DNA from: a bacterium
Lineage (GTDB): Bacteria; Bacillota_I; Bacilli_A; RF39; UBA660
NCBI GenBank assembly: GCA_022779465.1
Contig: JALFTB010000001.1
Location: forward strand, 3,824-67,823
DNA: 64,000 nt
Reading direction: 5' to 3'
Of this stretch, positions 20,880 through 59,666 are shown one piece after another. The notes under the pieces were generated by a model. The model was not told where the DNA came from. It searched no databases and saw only the letters and a program-made list of their open reading frames with translations. The translations under genes were made by a program, and so were the position numbers. Within the stretch, counting starts at the first letter, position 1. The number at the start of each line of letters is the position of its first letter.

Positions 20880-21237
20880 TGGTGGAGCCGAGCAGAATTG
20901 AACTGCTGTCCAAAATACTTCCATAGTACAATCTACAAGTTTAGATAATTTGTTATTTCACTAGTAGGAAGAAAACTATCTAAATTACTACTAGCTAAGC
21001 TTTAAAATTTTCGTTAAACAAACTAAGCAATCTATTTAATATAATCTACTATTATGAACCAATTTAAAACTCTGTAGATTTAGTCTTAAACCAGTGCTCC
21101 GTGCCAACTATTAGGCAAATGCTAGAGCTGTATTATAATTTGTTTTGTCAGTTATTTTAACTGTTTTGCTATTTAGGATAGCAACCACTTGCATGTAAAA
21201 CAGAATATATATTTTGTCGAAACCAAAAAACGGCCCC
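20880..21237 (-). ncRNA. ssrA: tmRNA (SsrA)
   Basis: The 5' end reads GGGGCCGTTTTTTGGTTTCGAC and the 3' end GGACAGCAGTTCAATTCTGCTCGGCTCCACCA. The acceptor stem pairs with a G3-U wobble. The T-arm is CAGCAG-UUCAAUU-CUGCUG. An internal tag reading frame reads ...DKTNYNTALAFA and ends in tandem TAA TAG. No ORF is called across this 358 nt gap. Confidence 0.85.
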
Positions 21238-22522: not shown

Positions 22523-22735
22523 TTATGATAAAAAGTTTATTATAATATCTTTACTTAAAATATCTGAGTACGAATAACTCTTTTTTTCTATACCATTAGA
22601 TACTATAAATACATGACTATAACATTCTGATATGTAGCCATAAAATATTTCATTTCTGTTTCTATTTTCTCTTGATGTAACTTTTATTTCTTGATTTAAA
22701 TGATTTCTTATATTTGTTTTAATTGATTCAATCAT
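22523..22735 (-). CDS. veg: Veg protein
   Basis: The 70 aa product shows the Veg signature (SRENRNRNEIFYGYISECYSHVFIV....SYSYSDILS). Confidence 0.8.
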   Translation of the reverse strand: MIESIKTNIRNHLNQEIKVTSRENRNRNEIFYGYISECYSHVFIVSNGIEKKSYSYSDILSKDIIINFLS

Positions 22736-23514
22736 CTTGGATACCCCACATACATAAGTCCATTACAAACAACTCCTCCCATTCCATCGGAACCATATTT
22801 GGTTTTATTTAAAAGTTCAATTAAATCTATTGTTTTCATTTTGTCGGTTAAAGCAATTGATGAAGCTATTATGGCAGGATCTAAAGCATGAATATTTACT
22901 CTTTTGGGACTAGATGCAAAATTTGCTCCACATTTAATTAATTCTTCATAATCGCTTTGACATGCACCAGCAATTATTATTAACTTGTCATGGTTTTTTT
23001 CATATTTTCTTGCTTTTTTAACTGATTCACAAAAATATTTTGAATTACGATAATTATTTAAATTTGTTTTAGAACCTTTCTTTGGATAATATGCATCATG
23101 ACCAGTTATTATGACAATGTCAGGATTACATTCTAATAAATATTTATTGATTTTATTTGGTAATTCTTCTTCACTTACAACTTTTCCAAAAGCTTTTAAA
23201 TTGTTTTGTTTATAATAATTTAGACATCTATTTAAATATTCTTCGTCACCATCGCAATGTAAAATTTTGGCTGGCATATAAAAGTATTCATTGCGATCTA
23301 AATTGTCATTATTGGTAACTTTGTATTCAAAATTATCTTTGCGATTTTCTGTATATAAAACTAAATCTTCAATCGGACTATCTGCATATAATCTGACATT
23401 TTCACCTTTTAAATAACAAACTCCATCTTTTATGTTTAAAATTTTAAATATTGTATCGTTATTATAACTTTTTCTTGTTACATAGTCGCCTTTTTTAAAG
23501 TTCATAGTTACCAC
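22732..23514 (-). CDS. yabG: sporulation-specific protease YabG
   Basis: The N-terminus FKKGDYVTRKSYNNDTIFKIL resembles the B. subtilis YabG start. It sits in the veg-yabG-ksgA synteny. Confidence 0.7.
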   Translation of the reverse strand: MVTMNFKKGDYVTRKSYNNDTIFKILNIKDGVCYLKGENVRLYADSPIEDLVLYTENRKDNFEYKVTNNDNLDRNEYFYMPAKILHCDGDEEYLNRCLNYYKQNNLKAFGKVVSEEELPNKINKYLLECNPDIVIITGHDAYYPKKGSKTNLNNYRNSKYFCESVKKARKYEKNHDKLIIIAGACQSDYEELIKCGANFASSPKRVNIHALDPAIIASSIALTDKMKTIDLIELLNKTKYGSDGMGGVVCNGLMYVGYPR

Positions 23515-25746: not shown

Positions 25747-27276
25747 TTATTTAGTTTCTATTCTGGCAAATAATACTTCTGGAGAGTTTACTTTTACTCC
25801 TGGTAATAATTTACCATATGTTAAATCATCGAATGTAGTAAATTCAGTATTAATTTGTTTTAAGGCTTTTTCAGCAGATGTTGGAATATATGCCTTTAAT
25901 AATATAGAAGAAATTCTTAATCCTTCTAATAGATTGTATAACACGGTTCCTAATCTTTCTTTTTTTGTTTCATCTTTTGCTAGGGTCCAAGGTGTTGTAT
26001 CATCAATGTATTTATTACATTTTGATAGTAAATCCATTATTTCAATAATTGCTTCATTTACTTTTAATTCATTCATTTTTCTAGTTACGATTTTTGGTAA
26101 TTTATTAATTGAATTTATTAAATCTTCATCGATTTTTTCTGGTTTACTATTTGGTTGAACTACACCATCAAAATATTTATTTAGCATTGAGATTGTTCTA
26201 TTTAGTAGATTACCATAGTTATTAGCTAAATCAGAGTTAGTTCTAGCTATTAATAATTCTTCAGAAAAGTTACCATCGTTTCCAAAAGGAACTTCTCTTA
26301 AAGCATAGTATCTTACTGCATCTACCCCATAATCTTCAATATATTCTCTTGGATCTTTATAGTTTCCTAAGGATTTAGAAATTTTGCCGCCATTAATAAT
26401 TAACCACCCATGACCAAATACTTTTTTAGGTAATTCTAATCCTAGTGCCATTAAAAGACATGGCCAAATAATAGTGTGAAATCTGATTATTTCTTTTCCT
26501 ACTAAGTGTAAATCTGCTGGCCAATATTTTTTGAACTTGGTATCATCGTCACTCATGTATCCTAGTGATGTAATATAGTTAGTTAAAGCATCAATCCAAA
26601 CATAAACTACATGATTAGGGTCAAAATCTACTGGTATACCCCATTTGAATGAAGTTCTTGAAACACATAAATCTTCTAAACCTGGCTTAATAAAGTTATT
26701 TATCATTTCATTTTTTCTAGATGTTGGTTGAATAAAATCTGGATGTTGTTCTAGGAAGTTTTCTAAGTTTTGTTGGTATTTTGATAGTTTAAAGAAATAT
26801 GCTTCTTCTGAAACTTCTTTTACTTCTCTACCACAATCAGGACACATACCATCTACAAGTTGGGTTTCAGTCCAGAAAGATTCACAAGGAGTACAATATA
26901 ATCCTTTATATTCACCTTTATAGATATCGCCTTGATCATATAATTTTTTAAATATTTTTTGAACAGCGGCTTCATGATCTTTGTCTGTTGTTCTGATGAA
27001 ATAATCATAACTAATTCCTAAAGATTTCCATAATTCTTTTGCATTGTCAACTATTTCATCTACATATTCTTTAGGTGTCTTACCAGCTTCTTTTGCCTTT
27101 AATTCAATCTTTTGGCCATGTTCATCTGTTCCTGTTTGAAAAAAGACATCATATCCTTCTAATCTTTTGAATCTTGCTATGGCATCGGCAATTATTGTTG
27201 TATAGCAATGACCAATATGAAAATTAGCACTTGGATAATAAATTGGGGTTGTTAAATAATATTTTTTCTTTTCCAT
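25747..27276 (-). CDS. metG: methionine--tRNA ligase (short form)
   Basis: The HIGH motif (ANFHIGHCYT) and KMSKS motif (KISKSLGN) are present, along with a zinc knuckle (CPDCGREV). Confidence 0.9.
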   Translation of the reverse strand: MEKKKYYLTTPIYYPSANFHIGHCYTTIIADAIARFKRLEGYDVFFQTGTDEHGQKIELKAKEAGKTPKEYVDEIVDNAKELWKSLGISYDYFIRTTDKDHEAAVQKIFKKLYDQGDIYKGEYKGLYCTPCESFWTETQLVDGMCPDCGREVKEVSEEAYFFKLSKYQQNLENFLEQHPDFIQPTSRKNEMINNFIKPGLEDLCVSRTSFKWGIPVDFDPNHVVYVWIDALTNYITSLGYMSDDDTKFKKYWPADLHLVGKEIIRFHTIIWPCLLMALGLELPKKVFGHGWLIINGGKISKSLGNYKDPREYIEDYGVDAVRYYALREVPFGNDGNFSEELLIARTNSDLANNYGNLLNRTISMLNKYFDGVVQPNSKPEKIDEDLINSINKLPKIVTRKMNELKVNEAIIEIMDLLSKCNKYIDDTTPWTLAKDETKKERLGTVLYNLLEGLRISSILLKAYIPTSAEKALKQINTEFTTFDDLTYGKLLPGVKVNSPEVLFARIETK

Positions 27277-27289
27277 TTTGTTTTTCCTT

Positions 27290-27520
27290 TCTAAAAAAAA
27301 TTCATAAACTAAAGGACGACTTAATGCCGTGGTACCACCTTAATTCATGAATTTCATGCACTTATATCTTAACGCGATTATTACGTTTGAACTCCAGAAC
27401 CATATTCATTATCAATAAATAATTCTCTTTCACCAAGCAAGAACTCTCTTTGTATTTACTAAATAATTACTCTTTCCTTCTTCGTTCAATATAGTTCATT
27501 CTAACATAATATGTTGATTT
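27290..27520 (-). promoter_or_regulatory. T-box riboswitch leader of metG
   Basis: The minus-strand leader contains the T-box sequence AATTAAGGTGGTACCACGGCATTAAG (plus coordinates 27321-27345). A terminator helix and a U-run (plus-strand A-run near 27291-27298) lie just upstream of the metG RBS. Confidence 0.75.
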
Positions 27521-37126: not shown

Positions 37127-37136
37127 TTTACTCCTC

Positions 37137-37216
37137 AAAAAAAGCGCACATACATAGAGGCAAATATGGCTGCTTTCTTCCGAATCTGACCAGGTTATTG
37201 CGTTTGTATTGCGCAT
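37137..37216 (-). ncRNA. ffs: small (4.5S-type) signal recognition particle RNA
   Basis: The minus-strand RNA reads GCGCAAUACAAACGCAAUAACCUGGUCAGAUUCGGAAGAAAGCAGCCAUAUUUGCCUCUAUGUAUGUGCGC plus a U7 run. It contains the conserved domain IV motif (GGUCAG...GGAAG.AAGCAGCC) inside a long closing helix. A TTGAAA-N17/18-TATATT promoter lies at about 37222-37258. Confidence 0.75.
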
Positions 37217-37295
37217 ATATAATATAGCATATTTTAATTACAGATTTCAATAATTGGATTTTTACTAATTTTAAAAATTTGTATTTTTTATTTTT

Positions 37296-37905
37296 TTATT
37301 GTTTCACGTGAAACATATGTGGATTTTTTTTGTAATTAAGTACTTATATAACTAAGTAATATTTTATAGGTTAATAAATAATAATTTTTTGATTGTAATG
37401 TATGGTATACAATGTTTCACGTGAAACATTGTTGACAACTTTAATATTAGATTTGATGTGAGTTATATATATTAAGTATGCTAATTTAGTTTTCTGCAAA
37501 TTAATTTCAATAATTTGCTCTTGTAGGCAAAAAATTATATGTTTCACGTGAAACATGTGTGGAAATAATTACTAATACATAAAATTTGTAAATGTTTATT
37601 TATTTTTTTACTTAAAATTATTTCCCGGGAAATAATTTTGTGTATATGTTTCACGTGAAACATATACTATTATTAATAAATTTTCAGTTTTTATAATAAA
37701 ATTGATGAAATAACGCTATTTTAAATAATTTAATAGCTTTGCAAATTAATTTCAATAATTTGCATTAGTAATTTTACTTATGTTTCACGTGAAACATTGT
37801 GGATATCTGTTTTTTTCTATTTTTTATTCAGATTTGGTTTTTCTGCAAATTAATTTTAATAATTTGTTTGTTTTTGTTGTGGATATGTTTCACGTGAAAC
37901 ATATC
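37296..37905. repeat. parS: array of six perfect parS centromere sites (TGTTTCACGTGAAACA)
   Basis: Identical 16-mers occur at 37300-37315, 37413-37428, 37540-37555, 37647-37662, 37781-37796 and 37886-37901, spaced 102-134 bp apart. The flanks are symmetric, which extends each palindrome to 18-24 bp. Confidence 0.85.
37620..37633. promoter_or_regulatory. Noc-binding-site-like palindrome ATTTCCCGGGAAAT
   Basis: This is a 14/14 match to the B. subtilis NBS consensus, embedded between parS copies 3 and 4. It is the only CCCGGG in the region. Confidence 0.6.
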
Positions 37906-37914
37906 TGTAACTAA

Positions 37915-37945
37915 AAAAGGTAGCTTTTATGCTACCTCTTCGATT
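37915..37945 (-). terminator. gyrA rho-independent terminator (overlaps stop codon)
   Basis: The minus-strand stem GGUAGC-AUAAAA-GCUACC is followed by a U-run. Confidence 0.65.
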
Positions 37946-43629: not shown

Positions 43630-44079
43630 TTATTTACCCTTTTTTCGGTTTTTAAAAGCTGTTTCTAATGATAAAGATTTTAAATATTGATTTTGAATAA
43701 TTCTATATGAAGTATCTATTTCTATACATTCATTATTTAAAAATTCGATTATGCTTTTTTCGGATTTAGAATGAACTTTTTTGATGTTATTTACGTTGAT
43801 CCACGCACAATCTTTTAGTCTTGGTGAACAAGTTGGAAAAAATATAATGCTTTTATCTTCTTCAACTATAATTGGCGCTTTATAGTTAAAACCAGTTAAT
43901 GAATATGTGCCTTGAATTCGTCCAGAAATACTACTTCCGTAATATTTACAGTTAGAATCCATTATTTTTAGGATTTTTTCATCAACAATATAACATTCAT
44001 GGTCTTCATAAATTACAGTTTTCTTTTTTCCAATTGGTATTAATGCAAGCGTATTTTTGTTAATTTCATAATCTTTCAT
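43630..44079 (-). CDS. comK: ComK-family transcription factor
   Basis: The product aligns along its length with B. subtilis ComK. Matching segments include YEINKNTLALIPIG, NCKYYGSSISGRIQGTYSLTGFNYKAPIIVEEDKSIIFFPTCSPRLKDCAWINVNN and SYRIIQNQYLKSLSLETAFKNR. It is 149 aa, shorter at the C-terminus than ComK (192 aa). Confidence 0.8.
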   Translation of the reverse strand: MKDYEINKNTLALIPIGKKKTVIYEDHECYIVDEKILKIMDSNCKYYGSSISGRIQGTYSLTGFNYKAPIIVEEDKSIIFFPTCSPRLKDCAWINVNNIKKVHSKSEKSIIEFLNNECIEIDTSYRIIQNQYLKSLSLETAFKNRKKGK

Positions 44080-45305: not shown

Positions 45306-45418
45306 TTTTATTCCTTCTTTCTAATTATTATTATTATTACAGTTGAAAATGTGGAAAACTAAATTAACCTCCCTATTTATAAGGATTATTTGATGTTTAT
45401 TATTTTTAGTTATTAGAA
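45306..45418. promoter_or_regulatory. oriC segment between dnaA and dnaN (DnaA box plus AT-rich spacer)
   Basis: A DnaA box variant TGTGGAAAA sits at 45350-45358. The region is AT-rich with ATT repeats (ttattattattattac). Confidence 0.5.
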
Positions 45419-46789
45419 CTAATTAACAATTTTATTTTTAATTTCTTCTAATGTTTCTTTAAGTTCCATATTTGTTTTTAATTCAGTACTGATTTTTTCA
45501 TAAGCGTGTAATACAGTTGAATGATCTCGATTACCAAATTCTAATCCTATTTTAACGATTGTTTCTTCTGTTGTCATTCGGCAAAGATATATGGCAATTT
45601 GTCTAGGATAATTAATATTTGCAGTTCTTTTTTTACTTTTTAAGTCCTCTACCGTTATTTTGTAGTGGTCTGCTACTGCTTTTTGAATTCTTTGAATATC
45701 ATTTGTTATATATATTGATTTTCCTAAATAATCTTTTAAAGCTTCAACTGCAAATTCCAAGTTAATTTCTTTAGGTCCCATCATTGCTGCATATGCATAA
45801 AGTCTTGTTATAGCACCTTCTAAATGTCTTACATCGTTTTCACAATTAGATGCAATATATTCTATAACGTCGTTTTTAACTAGTCTTGCAACTTCATGAC
45901 CAGTCATTTTTGCTTTTAAAATCTTACATCTTAGTTCAAAATCTGGTGGATCAATATTAACTGTTAATCCCCATCTAAATCTTGTTAATAACCTGTCTTC
46001 TAAATATTTAAGGTCATCTGGTGATTTATCCGAACTTATAATAATTTGTTTATTTGAATCATATAATGTTGTAAAAGTGTGGAAAAATTCTTGTTGAGAT
46101 TTTGCAGCTCCTGATAGGAATTGAATATCATCTATCATTAAAATGTCGATATTTCGGTATTTTTCCTTAAAGTGATCAATTATATCATTATTATTATCAT
46201 TTTCATCTTTAATATCTTTACGATTTATTCCAATAAAATCTGAAATAAATTCTTCACTTGTTACGTATAAAACTGTTTTATTTGTATGACTTTCAATATA
46301 ATTACCGATTGCATGCATTAAATGGGTTTTACCTAGTCCACTTTTTCCGTATATAAATAATGGATTATAGATTTTTCCGGGTTGTTCTGCGACTGCAAGT
46401 GCTGCAGTTTGTGCAAATCTGTTACTATCCCCTATTACAAAGTTTTCAAAAGTATATTTTTCGTTTAAATTTGAATTTATTTTTTTATATTGTTTATCAA
46501 CTATGTTAAGATTATTGTTTATTTCTGGGCTTTCTTCCACATTTTTTTTAGTAGTAAAATTAAGATTATAATTTTCTCCTGTGATAGCAAATACAATTTC
46601 ATGAATAAAATCGTAATAATATTGATTTAAATAGTCTGACGTAAATACTGAATCTGCTTCAATATTCATTGTGATACCTTCAATAGATTTTAATTTAGTT
46701 TCTGCAAACCAGGAATTAAATGATATATCAGGTACTTTACTTTGAATAACATTTAAAACATTAGTCCATAGTTCATCATAATTCTGCAT
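45419..46789 (-). CDS. dnaA: chromosomal replication initiator DnaA
   Basis: An AAA+ core (GKSGLGKTHL) is followed by a C-terminal DnaA-box binding domain. The start is taken at the internal MQNYDELWTNVL, which has a GGGTGAGGAA RBS. The ORF-track N-terminal extension is spurious. Confidence 0.95.
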   Translation of the reverse strand: MQNYDELWTNVLNVIQSKVPDISFNSWFAETKLKSIEGITMNIEADSVFTSDYLNQYYYDFIHEIVFAITGENYNLNFTTKKNVEESPEINNNLNIVDKQYKKINSNLNEKYTFENFVIGDSNRFAQTAALAVAEQPGKIYNPLFIYGKSGLGKTHLMHAIGNYIESHTNKTVLYVTSEEFISDFIGINRKDIKDENDNNNDIIDHFKEKYRNIDILMIDDIQFLSGAAKSQQEFFHTFTTLYDSNKQIIISSDKSPDDLKYLEDRLLTRFRWGLTVNIDPPDFELRCKILKAKMTGHEVARLVKNDVIEYIASNCENDVRHLEGAITRLYAYAAMMGPKEINLEFAVEALKDYLGKSIYITNDIQRIQKAVADHYKITVEDLKSKKRTANINYPRQIAIYLCRMTTEETIVKIGLEFGNRDHSTVLHAYEKISTELKTNMELKETLEEIKNKIVN

Positions 46790-47030
46790 TTCCTCACCCA
46801 CCTTAGTTTGCTTTCTTAAGTTAATTTTAAAACAATCCTGTGGAAAAATAAAGAATAAAAATGAAAAATTTGTTTTTCCAAAGTTTTTCCACAGCTTTAT
46901 CAACAAAACTCACCCTATTTTATCGCACTAAAAACACTTTTTCAACATTTTCCACAAAATAAAATTAACATTAATTTTTGAAATCCACATTTTCCAATTT
47001 TTGTAAAAAATGTGGAAAAATATTTGGCTG
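46790..47030. promoter_or_regulatory. oriC DnaA-box cluster upstream of dnaA
   Basis: TGTGGAAAA or TTTTCCACA-type boxes lie at 46839-47, 46885-93, 46948-56, 46981-89 and 47011-19. Confidence 0.65.
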
Positions 47031-47075
47031 AAATAAAATTATTATTTTTTGACTCAGTGAATATGATATTTATGG

Positions 47076-47109
47076 TTGACTTAAAAAAATTTATATAATA
47101 TAATAAGAG
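47076..47109 (+). promoter_or_regulatory. rpmH promoter
   Basis: It reads TTGACT-N17-TATAAT, 26 bp upstream of the rpmH ATG. Confidence 0.55.
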
Positions 47110-47134
47110 CGCCGATTGAAATGGAGGTGTGAAT

Positions 47135-47257
47135 ATGAAAAGAACATTTCAACCAAATAATCGTAAAGCAAAGAAAAAACAAGGATTTTTTGCTAGAGTG
47201 AAAACTAAAATTTTAAATAATCGTAGAAGAAAAGGACGCAAAAGATTAAGTAAATAG
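47135..47257 (+). CDS. rpmH: 50S ribosomal protein L34
   Basis: The product MKRTFQPNNRKAKKKQGFFARVKTKILNNRRRKGRKRLSK has a GGAGG RBS. It is below the ORF-track size cutoff. Confidence 0.9.
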   Translation: MKRTFQPNNRKAKKKQGFFARVKTKILNNRRRKGRKRLSK

Positions 47258-47294
47258 GCCACGTTAAGTGGTTTTTATTCTAATTGGAGGAAAT

Positions 47295-53204: not shown

Positions 53205-54407
53205 ATGGAGTCACAAGTTCAAAATATAAATATTGATTTAATTATACCAAATAGATTTCAACCACGCCTTTCTTTTGACGAAAAAGCTTTAAATGAATTA
53301 GCTGAGTCTATTAAACAACATGGTATTATTCAACCTTTAATTGTAAGGCAACTTGCTGATAAATATGAAATTATAGCTGGTGAAAGAAGATATAAAGCAG
53401 CTACTTTGGCTGGGTTATCAACTGTTCCTGTTATTGTAACTAATTTGTCTGATGCTAAGAGCGCTGAAGTTGCTCTTGTTGAAAATATTCAACGTAAAAA
53501 TTTAAGTTCAATAGAAGAAGCACTTTCATATAAGAGAAAAATAGATAAAGATAATTTAACTCAAGAACAATTAGCTAAATTATTGGGATTATCTCAATCA
53601 ACAGTTGCTAATCGTTTAAGATTGTTAAATTTAAGTAATGAAGTTCAAGATGCCTTATTAAAAGAAAAAATAAGTGAGCGTCATGCAAGAAGTTTATTAC
53701 AAATAAGTGATAAAAATAAACAAACCGAATTATTAAATCGTATAATAACTGAAAGATTAACAGTTAGACAGTTAGATGAAATAATAAAAAAAGAATTATC
53801 TTCACCTAGCACTTATGCAGAGGAAATACCTAGTAATTTAGAACAGCCTTTATCTTCAGAACCGGAAGCTGAACCAATTCCAGAACAAATTCCTTCAACT
53901 CAAATTGAAAGTTTGGATGTTTTAGGTGATGATAATACTTTAGATAATTCAAATAATATATTTGATACTGAAATAGATGCTTCAATGCCATCAGAGACTT
54001 TAGAGGAAATAGATAAAGAACCACAACATGAAGAACCTATGAGTAATATTTTAAATTTCTTACAAAGTTTTAATAATTCAGCGCCTTCACTTGATGATGA
54101 ACCAACTAATATGCAAACTTTTGATGATGATGTATTTAATGATGTTCATAGCGCTTATGATTTAATCGATGATGCAAATAAAGATCCAGATATTGTAAAT
54201 TTAGATACTGTTAATGAATCAAGTGTAACATCTGATAATCAAGTTTTAGACGATGTTGTTCCTAGAATAAAATCTGGAGATATGAGTTCATTAAAGAAAG
54301 CATATCATGATTTACAAGATGAAGCAGAAAAAGCAGGCTTTAAAATAAGCATGGAAGATTTTGATTTTGAAGATTTATATCAAATGATAATTAAAGTTGA
54401 TAAGTAA
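53205..54407 (+). CDS. ParB/Noc-family CTPase with a long acidic disordered C-terminal tail
   Basis: It has the ParB N-terminal domain with the GERRxRA CTP-binding motif (IAGERRYKAATLAGLSTVPVIV) and an HTH (GLSQSTVANRLRLL). The last 200 residues are D/E/S/P-rich low complexity. No ParA/Soj gene is adjacent. Confidence 0.75.
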   Translation: MESQVQNINIDLIIPNRFQPRLSFDEKALNELAESIKQHGIIQPLIVRQLADKYEIIAGERRYKAATLAGLSTVPVIVTNLSDAKSAEVALVENIQRKNLSSIEEALSYKRKIDKDNLTQEQLAKLLGLSQSTVANRLRLLNLSNEVQDALLKEKISERHARSLLQISDKNKQTELLNRIITERLTVRQLDEIIKKELSSPSTYAEEIPSNLEQPLSSEPEAEPIPEQIPSTQIESLDVLGDDNTLDNSNNIFDTEIDASMPSETLEEIDKEPQHEEPMSNILNFLQSFNNSAPSLDDEPTNMQTFDDDVFNDVHSAYDLIDDANKDPDIVNLDTVNESSVTSDNQVLDDVVPRIKSGDMSSLKKAYHDLQDEAEKAGFKISMEDFDFEDLYQMIIKVDK

Positions 54408-59153: not shown

Positions 59154-59666
59154 TTGAAAAAAATACTAGTTATTATAGGAGTAATATTATTTTTATTAAG
59201 CATAAATTATAATAATAAAGAAGAAGTATTTATTCCTAAAGATTCTATTAGATTTAGAATAGTAAGTAATAGTATGAATGAAGTTGATTTAAAAACTAAA
59301 CAAGAGTTAAAAAGTTATATAGAAGATTATGTTTATGATATAGTAAGTGATGCTAAAAGTAGTGAAGAAGCGGATGAATTATTGGTTAATAATTTAGAAA
59401 AAATTAGCAAACATATTAATCAATATTTGAATTCTAACAACTATAAAATAGATTACGGTATAAATTATTTTCCAAGAAAGGTATATAAAGGAGTTGTATA
59501 TGAAGAAGGTATGTATAAATCTTTAGTAATAACTTTAGGAGATGGAAAAGGTTCTAATTGGTGGTGTGTTTTATTTCCACCATTATGTTTATTAGATGAA
59601 AATGAAACAACAGCAGATGTTGATTATCAATTATATGTTGCTAGAATAATTAAAGTATTTAATTAA
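59154..59666 (+). CDS. spoIIR: stage II sporulation protein R
   Basis: A signal anchor, RFRIVSNSMNEVDLK and the near-invariant NWWCVLFPPLC motif are present. The ORF uses a TTG start. Confidence 0.7.
   Translation: MKKILVIIGVILFLLSINYNNKEEVFIPKDSIRFRIVSNSMNEVDLKTKQELKSYIEDYVYDIVSDAKSSEEADELLVNNLEKISKHINQYLNSNNYKIDYGINYFPRKVYKGVVYEEGMYKSLVITLGDGKGSNWWCVLFPPLCLLDENETTADVDYQLYVARIIKVFN

Follow-up and report, generated by a model that had tools for sequence, protein, structure and literature searches.

ParB and Noc are textbook paralogues that have split in DNA specificity and in function, ParB serving an origin-near centromere and Noc serving nucleoid occlusion sites spread over the chromosome. 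Among the Firmicutes, Bacillus subtilis carries ten ParB sites (parS), Staphylococcus aureus five and Streptococcus pneumoniae four. The iterated centromeres of plasmids and phages, such as sopC of the F plasmid, hold several identical protein-binding palindromes in a short non-coding stretch, and clusters of DnaA boxes outside the origin are known as datA in Escherichia coli and as DnaA-box clusters (DBCs) in B. subtilis. Here we describe the spacer between gyrA and ffs in a 64-kb stretch of DNA (the window; contig JALFTB010000001.1 of assembly GCA_022779465.1), which is the origin region of a Firmicute-type chromosome of ~25% GC. The spacer contains six parS sites, one Noc-binding site (NBS) and DnaA boxes, and is probably a composite, origin-proximal, centromere-like platform that combines parS-specific ParB clamps, Noc-type clamps and DnaA boxes.

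The parS sites were located by matching the 16-mer TGTTTCACGTGAAACA to the whole window with up to two mismatches allowed, using dinucleotide shuffles as the null. Six exact copies were obtained, at 37300–37315 (parS1), 37413–37428 (parS2), 37540–37555 (parS3), 37647–37662 (parS4), 37781–37796 (parS5) and 37886–37901 (parS6), each a 16-bp inverted repeat, given without strand, that matches the chromosomal parS consensus TGTTNCACGTGAAACA at 16 of 16 positions. The shuffles gave an expectation of 0.03 sites, and none of 100 reached six. These results confirm the six perfect parS between gyrA and ffs reported in a preliminary description of this DNA; moreover, all parS of the window are confined to the array, no seventh site being present in the 64 kb even at two mismatches or fewer. 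Start-to-start distances are 113, 127, 107, 134 and 105 bp, so that the upper bound of the previously given range of 102–134 bp holds and the lower bound becomes 105 bp. The symmetric flanks said to yield palindromes of 22–24 bp are a property of sites 2, 4 and 6, where parS2 and parS6 form the cores of 24-bp perfect palindromes (37409–37432 and 37882–37905) and parS4 the core of one of 26 bp (37642–37667). In contrast, parS3 and parS5 lie in palindromes of 18 bp, and that of parS1 ends at 16 bp, this site being without the A at −1 that is typical of its relatives.

Inside the array lies a perfect NBS, the 16-mer TATTTCCCGGGAAATA at 37619–37634 within a 26-bp perfect palindrome, AAAATTATTTCCCGGGAAATAATTTT (37614–37639, without strand), starting 28 bp from the start of parS4. 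No further NBS was found in the 64-kb window at two mismatches or fewer, and a search beside the other parS sites for degenerate NBS relics gave one half-site only, after parS3. In addition, two DnaA boxes on the minus strand, both reading ATATCCACA and matching TTATCCACA at eight of nine positions, are set against parS sites, one (37798–37806) 1 nt from parS5 and the other (37878–37886) overlapping the first base of parS6. Weaker motifs of the form TGTGGA(T/A) come after two other sites: TGTGGATTT, after parS1, resembles a weak DnaA box, and TGTGGAAATAATT, after parS3, can be read as a weak DnaA box or as an NBS half-site. The NBS and the two near-consensus DnaA boxes had been overlooked in the preliminary description, which presented a plain parS array.

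The locus resembles the ParB/Spo0J–parS systems of the Firmicutes in that its palindrome is identical to their consensus and lies near the origin, where ParB-CTP clamp loading and SMC recruitment would be expected; as in S. aureus and S. pneumoniae, no ParA was found nearby in the window. Unlike the parS of those systems, which are single, often intragenic and distributed over tens to hundreds of kb, the six identical sites of the window occupy 600 bp of one spacer, are interleaved with an NBS and are abutted by DnaA boxes, and the customary rsmG–noc–soj–spo0J position holds no gene for the cognate ParB.

Independent assemblies contain the same array. Of two short-read Logan contigs from the same species, L131 is 100% identical to the window and spans parS1–4 together with the NBS, and L128, which spans parS1–3, is 97.7% identical overall and 95.9% over its part of the array. 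A locus from another metagenome (L166), whose GyrA and TadA are 99% identical to those of the window, has six parS and one NBS at near-identical spacing. Over the 705-bp array the window and L166 show 27 differences (22 positions and five gaps), about four of which would be expected in the seven sites if they fell at random. None of the 27 falls in these seven protein-binding sites, which are thus maintained by selection. The array is also present at the same locus in a related, circular long-read chromosome assembled with metaFlye (OZ006970.1; L015). A collapsed or expanded assembly repeat, named in the preliminary description as what could undo the array, was not borne out by L131, L128, L166, the circular chromosome or the synteny described below, and an assembly artefact is excluded.

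Three of the short-read contigs (L128, L129 and L131) terminate within the array or at its edge. A further locus, the metagenome contig L143:1–2400, has two divergent tadA–dnaX pairs around one array, with 99%/97% and 47%/62% identity to the window; it is apparently a chimera in which two species were fused at the parS/NBS repeats that both possess. Such arrays break or mis-join short-read metagenome assemblies.

The gyrA–tadA spacer holds such arrays in >130 related loci from genomes and metagenomes. Around 17 low-GC metagenome-assembled genome (MAG) loci, among them the circular L015, carry the labels “uncultured Bacilli”, “Tenericutes” or “Mycoplasma” and have the gene order of the window, with gyrA, 3–11 parS, (ffs) tadA and dnaX. 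GyrA amino-acid identity to the window is 60–75% in these syntenic MAG loci and spans 53–75% over relatives with an array in this spacer. The array is a stable feature at roughly family-to-order depth. In parallel, a metagenome scan for NBS-N{5,35}-parS returned at least 120 loci. Among the 120 listed, 116 are flanked by gyrA and/or tadA/dnaX homologues, all but two have a GC content of 0.19–0.31, and the mean is 2.8 parS and 2.4 NBS per locus. Among the genome-scan matches listed, a perfect NBS was seen in nine loci of the low-GC Bacilli clade besides the window and in none of ~100 other loci; several of the Clostridia loci listed encode a Noc paralogue yet are without a perfect NBS, and L019 has only the 14-bp NBS core, at the edge of the locus. 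Of the 19 NBS in the genome loci of the clade, 13 have a parS no more than 68 bp away and six lie elsewhere, corresponding to a ~30-fold enrichment of NBS in the array within origin-proximal sequence. The composite character is extreme in L015, with six tandem units of ~125 bp, each containing an NBS and a parS. Flank logos for the clade show longer motifs, AAAW-NBS-WTTT and A-parS-T. An array of parS and NBS in the gyrA–tadA spacer is a hallmark of this large clade of gut Bacilli, which are uncultured and of low GC; the window holds a parS-rich version of it.

The DnaA boxes show a similar association. In the 14 nt flanking clade parS, no 6-mers are more enriched than pieces of TTATCCACA/TGTGGATAA (~20-fold), and perfect DnaA boxes occur at 0.54 per kb in the arrays compared with 0.051 per kb outside them (~10-fold). 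Their placement is narrow, with 75 of 110 array DnaA boxes centred 12–14 bp from a parS centre and hence abutting it. A DnaA box abuts 79 of 416 clade parS (~19%) but only 2 of 351 (0.6%) in other lineages, an adjacency specific to the clade. Like datA and the DBCs, these boxes lie a few kb from oriC without being part of the origin, and they may serve to titrate DnaA or to regulate it; unlike them, the boxes of the window are single and stand against parS at a fixed centre distance instead of forming a cluster of their own. We know of no description of single DnaA boxes butted against parS.

The spacing between the two palindromes was analysed by counting each NBS–parS start-to-start distance once per locus, the loci being mutually related and the counts uncorrected for phylogeny. 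In the uniformly ascertained range of 21–51 bp they have a bimodal distribution that peaks at 26–27 and 36 bp and dips at 31–32 and 40 bp; past 51 bp, peaks follow at 58, 67–69 and 78 bp. The Rayleigh test gave R = 0.37 (p ≤ 2e-4) at a phase of about half a turn for the 21–51 bp range, and R = 0.26 (p = 4e-4) at a phase of ~5 bp for 52–160 bp, which lies outside the ascertainment. The latter signal was obtained at periods of 10.3–10.5 only and was gone at periods of 7, 8, 9.5 and 11.5. An independent genome set (n = 18) likewise gave R = 0.51 (p = 0.006–0.01) at about half a turn. NBS–NBS distances are in phase (R = 0.28, p = 2e-4), and for parS–parS distances the signal is weak (R = 0.12, p ~ 0.05) and no claim is made. 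The distances suggest that NBS and parS are separated by n + 1/2 helical turns, which would place them on opposite faces of the DNA.

Relatives also repeatedly carry a perfect NBS inside dnaX, near codons 345–366, as in L059:4859, L064:5578, L118:1875 and many metagenome loci, e.g. L141, L153, L165, L177, L193, L210, L212, L235 and L249; the dnaX of the window is without one. Being a perfect, GC-containing 16-bp palindrome in AT-rich genes, this second location suggests selection on the dnaX NBS as well.

The spacers of the array have diverged. Tandem Repeats Finder (TRF) detected no tandem repeat in them, and the likeness that remains consists of short blocks around parS and of a third motif, so that a tandem-repeat origin of the array in the window is unsupported. 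The third motif, CAAATTAATTTYAATAATTTG, has 7-bp inverted arms around a 7-bp spacer and occurs at 37497–37517 (plus strand), with copies at 37742–37762 and 37846–37866, ~20–25 nt upstream of parS3, parS5 and parS6 (three copies compared with 0.36 expected in the window). It was found in none of 127 related loci searched, which rules it out as a conserved protein site and marks it as species-specific. It is probably a relic of an ancestral repeat unit, or it may be a species-specific protein site.

The one ParB-family gene of the window (53205–54407, plus strand) encodes a protein of 400 aa that scores 184 bits against the generic ParB model TIGR00180 and 277 bits against the Noc model TIGR04285, the latter under the cutoff of 315. 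Its best PDB matches are the Noc proteins of Geobacillus and Bacillus, ahead of Spo0J, and the ParB-type CTP-binding N-domain is present (IIAGERRYKAA, VENIQRKNL). Specificity positions 173, 179, 184 and 201 are given in Caulobacter numbering (Jalal et al.). Aligned to the structures of Noc and Spo0J, and compared by motif with 60 genes for ParB and Noc, the protein reads SQSTVANRLRLLNL...RHAR at these positions, i.e. Q173/R179/N184/R201, compared with Q/K/K/R in Noc and R173 and G201 in canonical ParB. Its recognition-helix region is almost the same as in Bacillus Noc. Deep mutational scanning found R173 to be invariable among parS-specific variants and Q173 with R201 to confer NBS specificity when K or R is present at 179 or 184 (PMC7383237), a combination that the protein displays through Q173, R201 and R179; the exact QRNR combination was not found in the text of that paper. 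Furthermore, B. subtilis Noc loads strictly at NBS, with no loading on parS DNA (PMC8429893). Because of its Q/R/N/R residues, these published rules and the behaviour of B. subtilis Noc, the 53205–54407 protein is predicted to read the NBS and not the six parS. The preliminary description had taken it for the resident ParB acting at parS, an assignment at odds with its Noc/NBS code in place of the invariant R173 and G201.

In other respects the protein departs from Noc. An N-terminal amphipathic membrane-targeting helix is absent: residue 3 aligns to residue 26 of Geobacillus thermoleovorans Noc, and in the alignment to the B. subtilis protein residue 4 pairs with residue 29, so there is no counterpart of the first ~25 residues of Noc, which form the membrane-targeting helix α1 and helix α2, and the open reading frame (ORF) cannot extend upstream. 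A ~150-aa acidic linker separates the DNA-binding domain from a Noc-like C-terminal dimerisation domain. This linker (residues ~200–350; 53805–54260) is of low complexity and rich in S, N, P, D and E, and family members range from ~200 to 785 aa, differing in length mostly through it. Nearly all of its close family is of this type. Among the nearest 150 representatives of clusters at 50% identity, 147 have Q..R, 108 of these being QKNR; these 147 have only 14–18 residues before PNRFQPR, and the family has N, S or T at position 184 in place of the K of Noc. Three diverged members share the gene context rsmG–noc-type–|PBP1A, in which the soj–spo0J slot of the ancestral ORI cluster (PMC8136486) is empty. 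Annotation of this large Noc-type family as ‘ParB’ is misleading about its DNA target.

The window thus shares with the Noc–NBS systems of B. subtilis and S. aureus the exact NBS consensus TATTTCCCGGGAAATA, Q173/R201 with a permissive R179, the GERR CTP motif, the Noc-like C-terminal domain and a gene placed right after rsmG. It differs in the missing helices α1 and α2, the acidic linker and the N instead of K at 184, and in that the NBS of the clade are concentrated ~30-fold in the oriC-near parS array and not only scattered over the chromosome.

A gene for the reader of parS was sought in several ways. Searching the window by tblastn with Spo0J and Soj found the Noc-type gene alone, with no Soj homologue at E < 1e-3, and Pfam annotation of 10-kb extensions on each side of the window (~84 kb in total) revealed neither a canonical ParB (R173/G201) nor ParA. 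Two unannotated ORFs of ~280 aa were rejected as candidates, Pfam assigning them to patatin-like and thioredoxin-like proteins. No soj, spo0J or noc was found in the 120 metagenome loci listed, and no canonical ParB or ParA stands next to the Noc-type gene in the three diverged relatives. Since the exact universal parS is conserved, also in arrays free of NBS (L048 and L085), a canonical ParB is presumably encoded elsewhere in the genome.

Dense parS arrays are not peculiar to this clade. When one genome of each species was scanned for a pair of perfect parS 88–118 bp apart, at least 120 species were obtained, including Actinomycetota, Clostridia, Spirochaetota, Alphaproteobacteria, the candidate phyla radiation (CPR), Omnitrophota and others. 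Among the matches listed, 40, 34, 21, 8, 8, 6, 1, 1 and 1 loci have 2, 3, 4, 5, 6, 7, 9, 10 and 12 perfect sites per 8-kb locus, respectively, so that 25 have between 5 and 12; arrays of this size occur in Oscillospiraceae, Lachnospiraceae, Paceibacterota, Holosporaceae, Treponema, Bifidobacterium and others. Dense chromosomal parS arrays are a recurring pattern, and the earlier statement that chromosomes normally carry a few single, scattered parS applies only to model organisms. Individual examples include ten parS at an exact 55-bp period, one position being a one-mismatch site, in a Bacilli MAG (L048:5384–5879), twelve parS in 1.9 kb in an Oscillospiraceae MAG (L119:1208–3071) and seven parS in 370 bp in a complete Paceibacterota (CPR) chromosome (L046:1473–1827). 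In most of the other lineages listed, the array adjoins soj/parA–parB, and the ParB there reads SR....N..RLL.L...GHAR.

Like the parS clusters beside parAB in Caulobacter, Corynebacterium, Myxococcus, Streptomyces and many MAG lineages, the array of the window comprises multiple parS that would act as one centromere region. Those clusters, however, adjoin parA–parB and, among the matches listed, are without NBS and essentially without abutting DnaA boxes, whereas the array of the window occupies the gyrA–ffs spacer and has no par genes in its vicinity. With sopC-type centromeres it shares identical palindromes at roughly regular intervals of ~100–130 bp; unlike them, it neither adjoins a partition operon nor sits on a mobile element, and it has diverged spacers and the universal chromosomal parS as its motif. 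The array had been described as looking more like a plasmid or phage centromere. This comparison is not supported in view of the many species and the 25 loci above, the position away from parAB, the diverged spacers and a blastn search of the array against plasmid and phage records, which returned no match. A plasmid- or phage-type iterated centromere was rejected for the window, there being no nearby par genes, no TRF repeat and no plasmid or phage similarity, and the chromosomal synteny being conserved.

The array occupies a 610-bp spacer from the gyrA terminator hairpin to ffs. At its right edge is the intrinsic terminator of gyrA (37918–37937, minus strand), with the stop codon (37927) in the loop and the T-tract on the minus strand, and parS6 is located 11 nt downstream of this T-tract. 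The left edge is formed by ffs, encoding the small SRP RNA (37129–37225, minus strand), with a promoter-like match at 37221–37250 and tadA–dnaX downstream. The minus strand carries dnaA, dnaN, a comK-like gene, recF, gyrB and gyrA, then the array, ffs, tadA and dnaX; on the plus strand are rnpA, yidC, jag, mnmE, mnmG, rsmG and the 400-aa ParB-family gene, followed by a PBP1A gene on the opposite strand. The oriC region (46839–47267, without strand) is the dnaA–rpmH spacer, where TTTTCCACA DnaA boxes cluster and GC skew reaches its minimum. The GC-skew switch (~47 kb) and the DnaA-box cluster (46.8–47.0 kb) place oriC at ~46.9–47.3 kb, and the resulting array-to-oriC distance of 9.1–9.7 kb agrees with the intergenic position ~9 kb from oriC given previously. 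The DnaA boxes of the oriC region (45350–47019) are mostly TTTTCCACA, with six copies around dnaA, and those abutting parS are ATATCCACA; each is one mismatch from TTATCCACA.

Other features of the window were noted. The ComK-family gene (43630–44079, minus strand; Pfam PF06338, E = 4e-37) lies between dnaN and recF in the conserved origin block, and is found at the same position in three diverged relatives (L252, L254 and L255). Sporulation-associated genes for YabG peptidase, SpoIIR and SpoIID are present in this 25% GC genome, to which protein MCI6763300.1 belongs (window 22732–23514, minus strand, and 59154–59666, plus strand; L122:10863–11543), and PBP1A, FemAB and LysM proteins are encoded alongside them. 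The window also contains two ordinary features, a tmRNA gene (20880–21237, minus strand) and a T-box leader (27309–27491, minus strand) upstream of a 509-aa ORF (25747–27276). The organism is very prevalent, individual proteins of the window being indexed in 400–600 blocks of the assembly collection.

From the sites, their conservation, co-location and phasing, and from the specificity residues of the protein, we infer the following scheme for protein binding, spreading, SMC loading and coupling to DnaA. A ParB-CTP loading centre is the natural reading of the array, because its parS are canonical, origin-proximal and under selection and occupy the same spacer in relatives. ParB dimers would nucleate on the six parS, as suggested by motif identity and conservation, and Noc-type dimers of the 53205–54407 protein would nucleate on the NBS, on the opposite face of the DNA, the specificity residues here adding to motif identity and conservation. 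Both types of clamp would then bind CTP, close and slide into gyrBA on one side and into ffs–tadA–dnaX on the other, and may thereby spread over the same ~10 kb next to oriC and form a single origin-organising nucleoprotein domain. Given the apparent absence of ParA, the domain would probably serve chiefly to load SMC and to organise the origin, in the manner of S. aureus and S. pneumoniae. DnaA bound next to parS might be titrated or regulated there, or might act as a one-sided roadblock that biases clamp spreading. Because it lacks the membrane anchor, the Noc-type protein would be a second centromere-binding clamp, not a classical membrane-tethering nucleoid-occlusion factor. For a ParA-less arrangement there is precedent in S. 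aureus, where ParB loads SMC at parS and Noc restrains replication initiation (PMC12479847); this restraint provides a precedent tying the protein family to initiation control.

Several points weigh against a composite platform. Canonical ParB and ParA were found in none of the loci searched, namely the window, its 10-kb extensions, the 120 metagenome loci listed and the three relatives, and the proposed reader of parS is therefore a predicted component and not one that has been seen. The phasing statistics are drawn from mutually related loci without phylogenetic correction. With a single NBS in the window and one mismatch in each of its two DnaA boxes, the composite character is much weaker there than in L015 or L208, and many clade arrays, such as L048 and L085, consist of parS only, so that the NBS is not obligatory. 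It may also be that ParB and Noc complexes simply tolerate each other. An alternative is that the clade has lost canonical ParB together with ParA; the Noc-type protein, or homodimers of relaxed specificity, would then nucleate on parS and NBS alike, and mixed arrays would tune the occupancy of one clamp. Consistent with this, the Noc-type gene is the sole ParB-family gene seen in ~84 kb around oriC and in the three diverged relatives with their empty soj–spo0J slot, its family has N, S or T instead of the K of Noc at 184, and parS and NBS differ at just two positions per half-site. We nevertheless regard a single reader as unlikely, since parS-specific variants keep the invariable R173, position 201 is mostly T or S instead of R in dual-specificity variants (PMC7383237), no loading at parS is seen for B. 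subtilis Noc (PMC8429893) and the protein has almost the same recognition-helix region as Bacillus Noc; the parS-only arrays, moreover, retain the exact universal parS, arguing for a universal reader.

An ordinary parS cluster, in which ParB alone matters and the NBS and DnaA boxes are incidental, would fit the frequency of tight parS arrays across phyla, the parS-only members of the clade and the lone NBS of the window. It is quite unlikely, however, in the light of a perfect 16-bp NBS that is not a chance event in DNA of 25% GC, the restriction of NBS among the matches listed to the clade and their concentration in the gyrA–tadA spacer, the helical phasing of NBS–parS distances and the clade-only placement of DnaA boxes at 12–14 bp from parS centres. 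The position of the array, reaching from the gyrA terminator to the promoter-like site of ffs, would also suit a transcriptional operator that mainly represses or insulates the ffs–tadA–dnaX promoter region or gyrA read-through, and Pseudomonas aeruginosa ParB at an intergenic parS does repress adjacent genes (PMC7022226). In B. subtilis, by contrast, Spo0J has no effect on parS-adjacent genes (PMC7022226); parS1 lies >50 bp upstream of the −35 match, and six to eleven sites plus NBS are excessive for an operator. Such a role is very unlikely to be the principal one, and would be compatible with a composite platform, not exclusive of it. Finally, the breaks of L128, L129 and L131 inside the array and the seemingly chimeric L143 are what a collapsed or expanded repeat might leave behind, and an iterated array might have been acquired horizontally as a plasmid or phage centromere. 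Either origin is improbable to the point of being negligible, given six parS and one NBS seen independently in L166, the same locus in a circular long-read relative, synteny in >130 loci, the lack of plasmid or phage matches and the absence of mobile-element genes nearby.

With the composite platform as the preferred explanation, a broader proposal for the clade can be made, and we hold it as a tentative possibility. The clade may have exchanged the dispersed layout of parS and NBS for a single composite centromere in the gyrA–tadA spacer, at which ParB-type and anchor-less Noc-type clamps would be co-loaded on opposite faces, with DnaA docked at parS and ParA apparently absent; in its extreme version the Noc-type protein would be the sole ParB-family member and would read both motifs. 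If this is true, chromosome segregation or organisation and the control of replication initiation would be wired together on ~600 bp of DNA.

A literature search on parS/NBS co-occurrence, parS clusters and Noc distribution returned no description of interleaved arrays or of parS-abutting DnaA boxes, a result that is weak evidence of novelty with subscription journals thinly covered. As a parS array the locus is a member of a common kind; for a phased platform of parS, NBS and DnaA boxes accompanied by an anchor-less Noc-type family, no prior description was found. In the loci of this clade the motifs of ParB and Noc are recombined in one phased array, with DnaA boxes fixed against parS. If confirmed, the array would provide a natural system for how two CTP-gated sliding clamps use one DNA track, a test of centromere function for Noc-type proteins and of the coupling between origin organisation and initiation in ParA-less bacteria.

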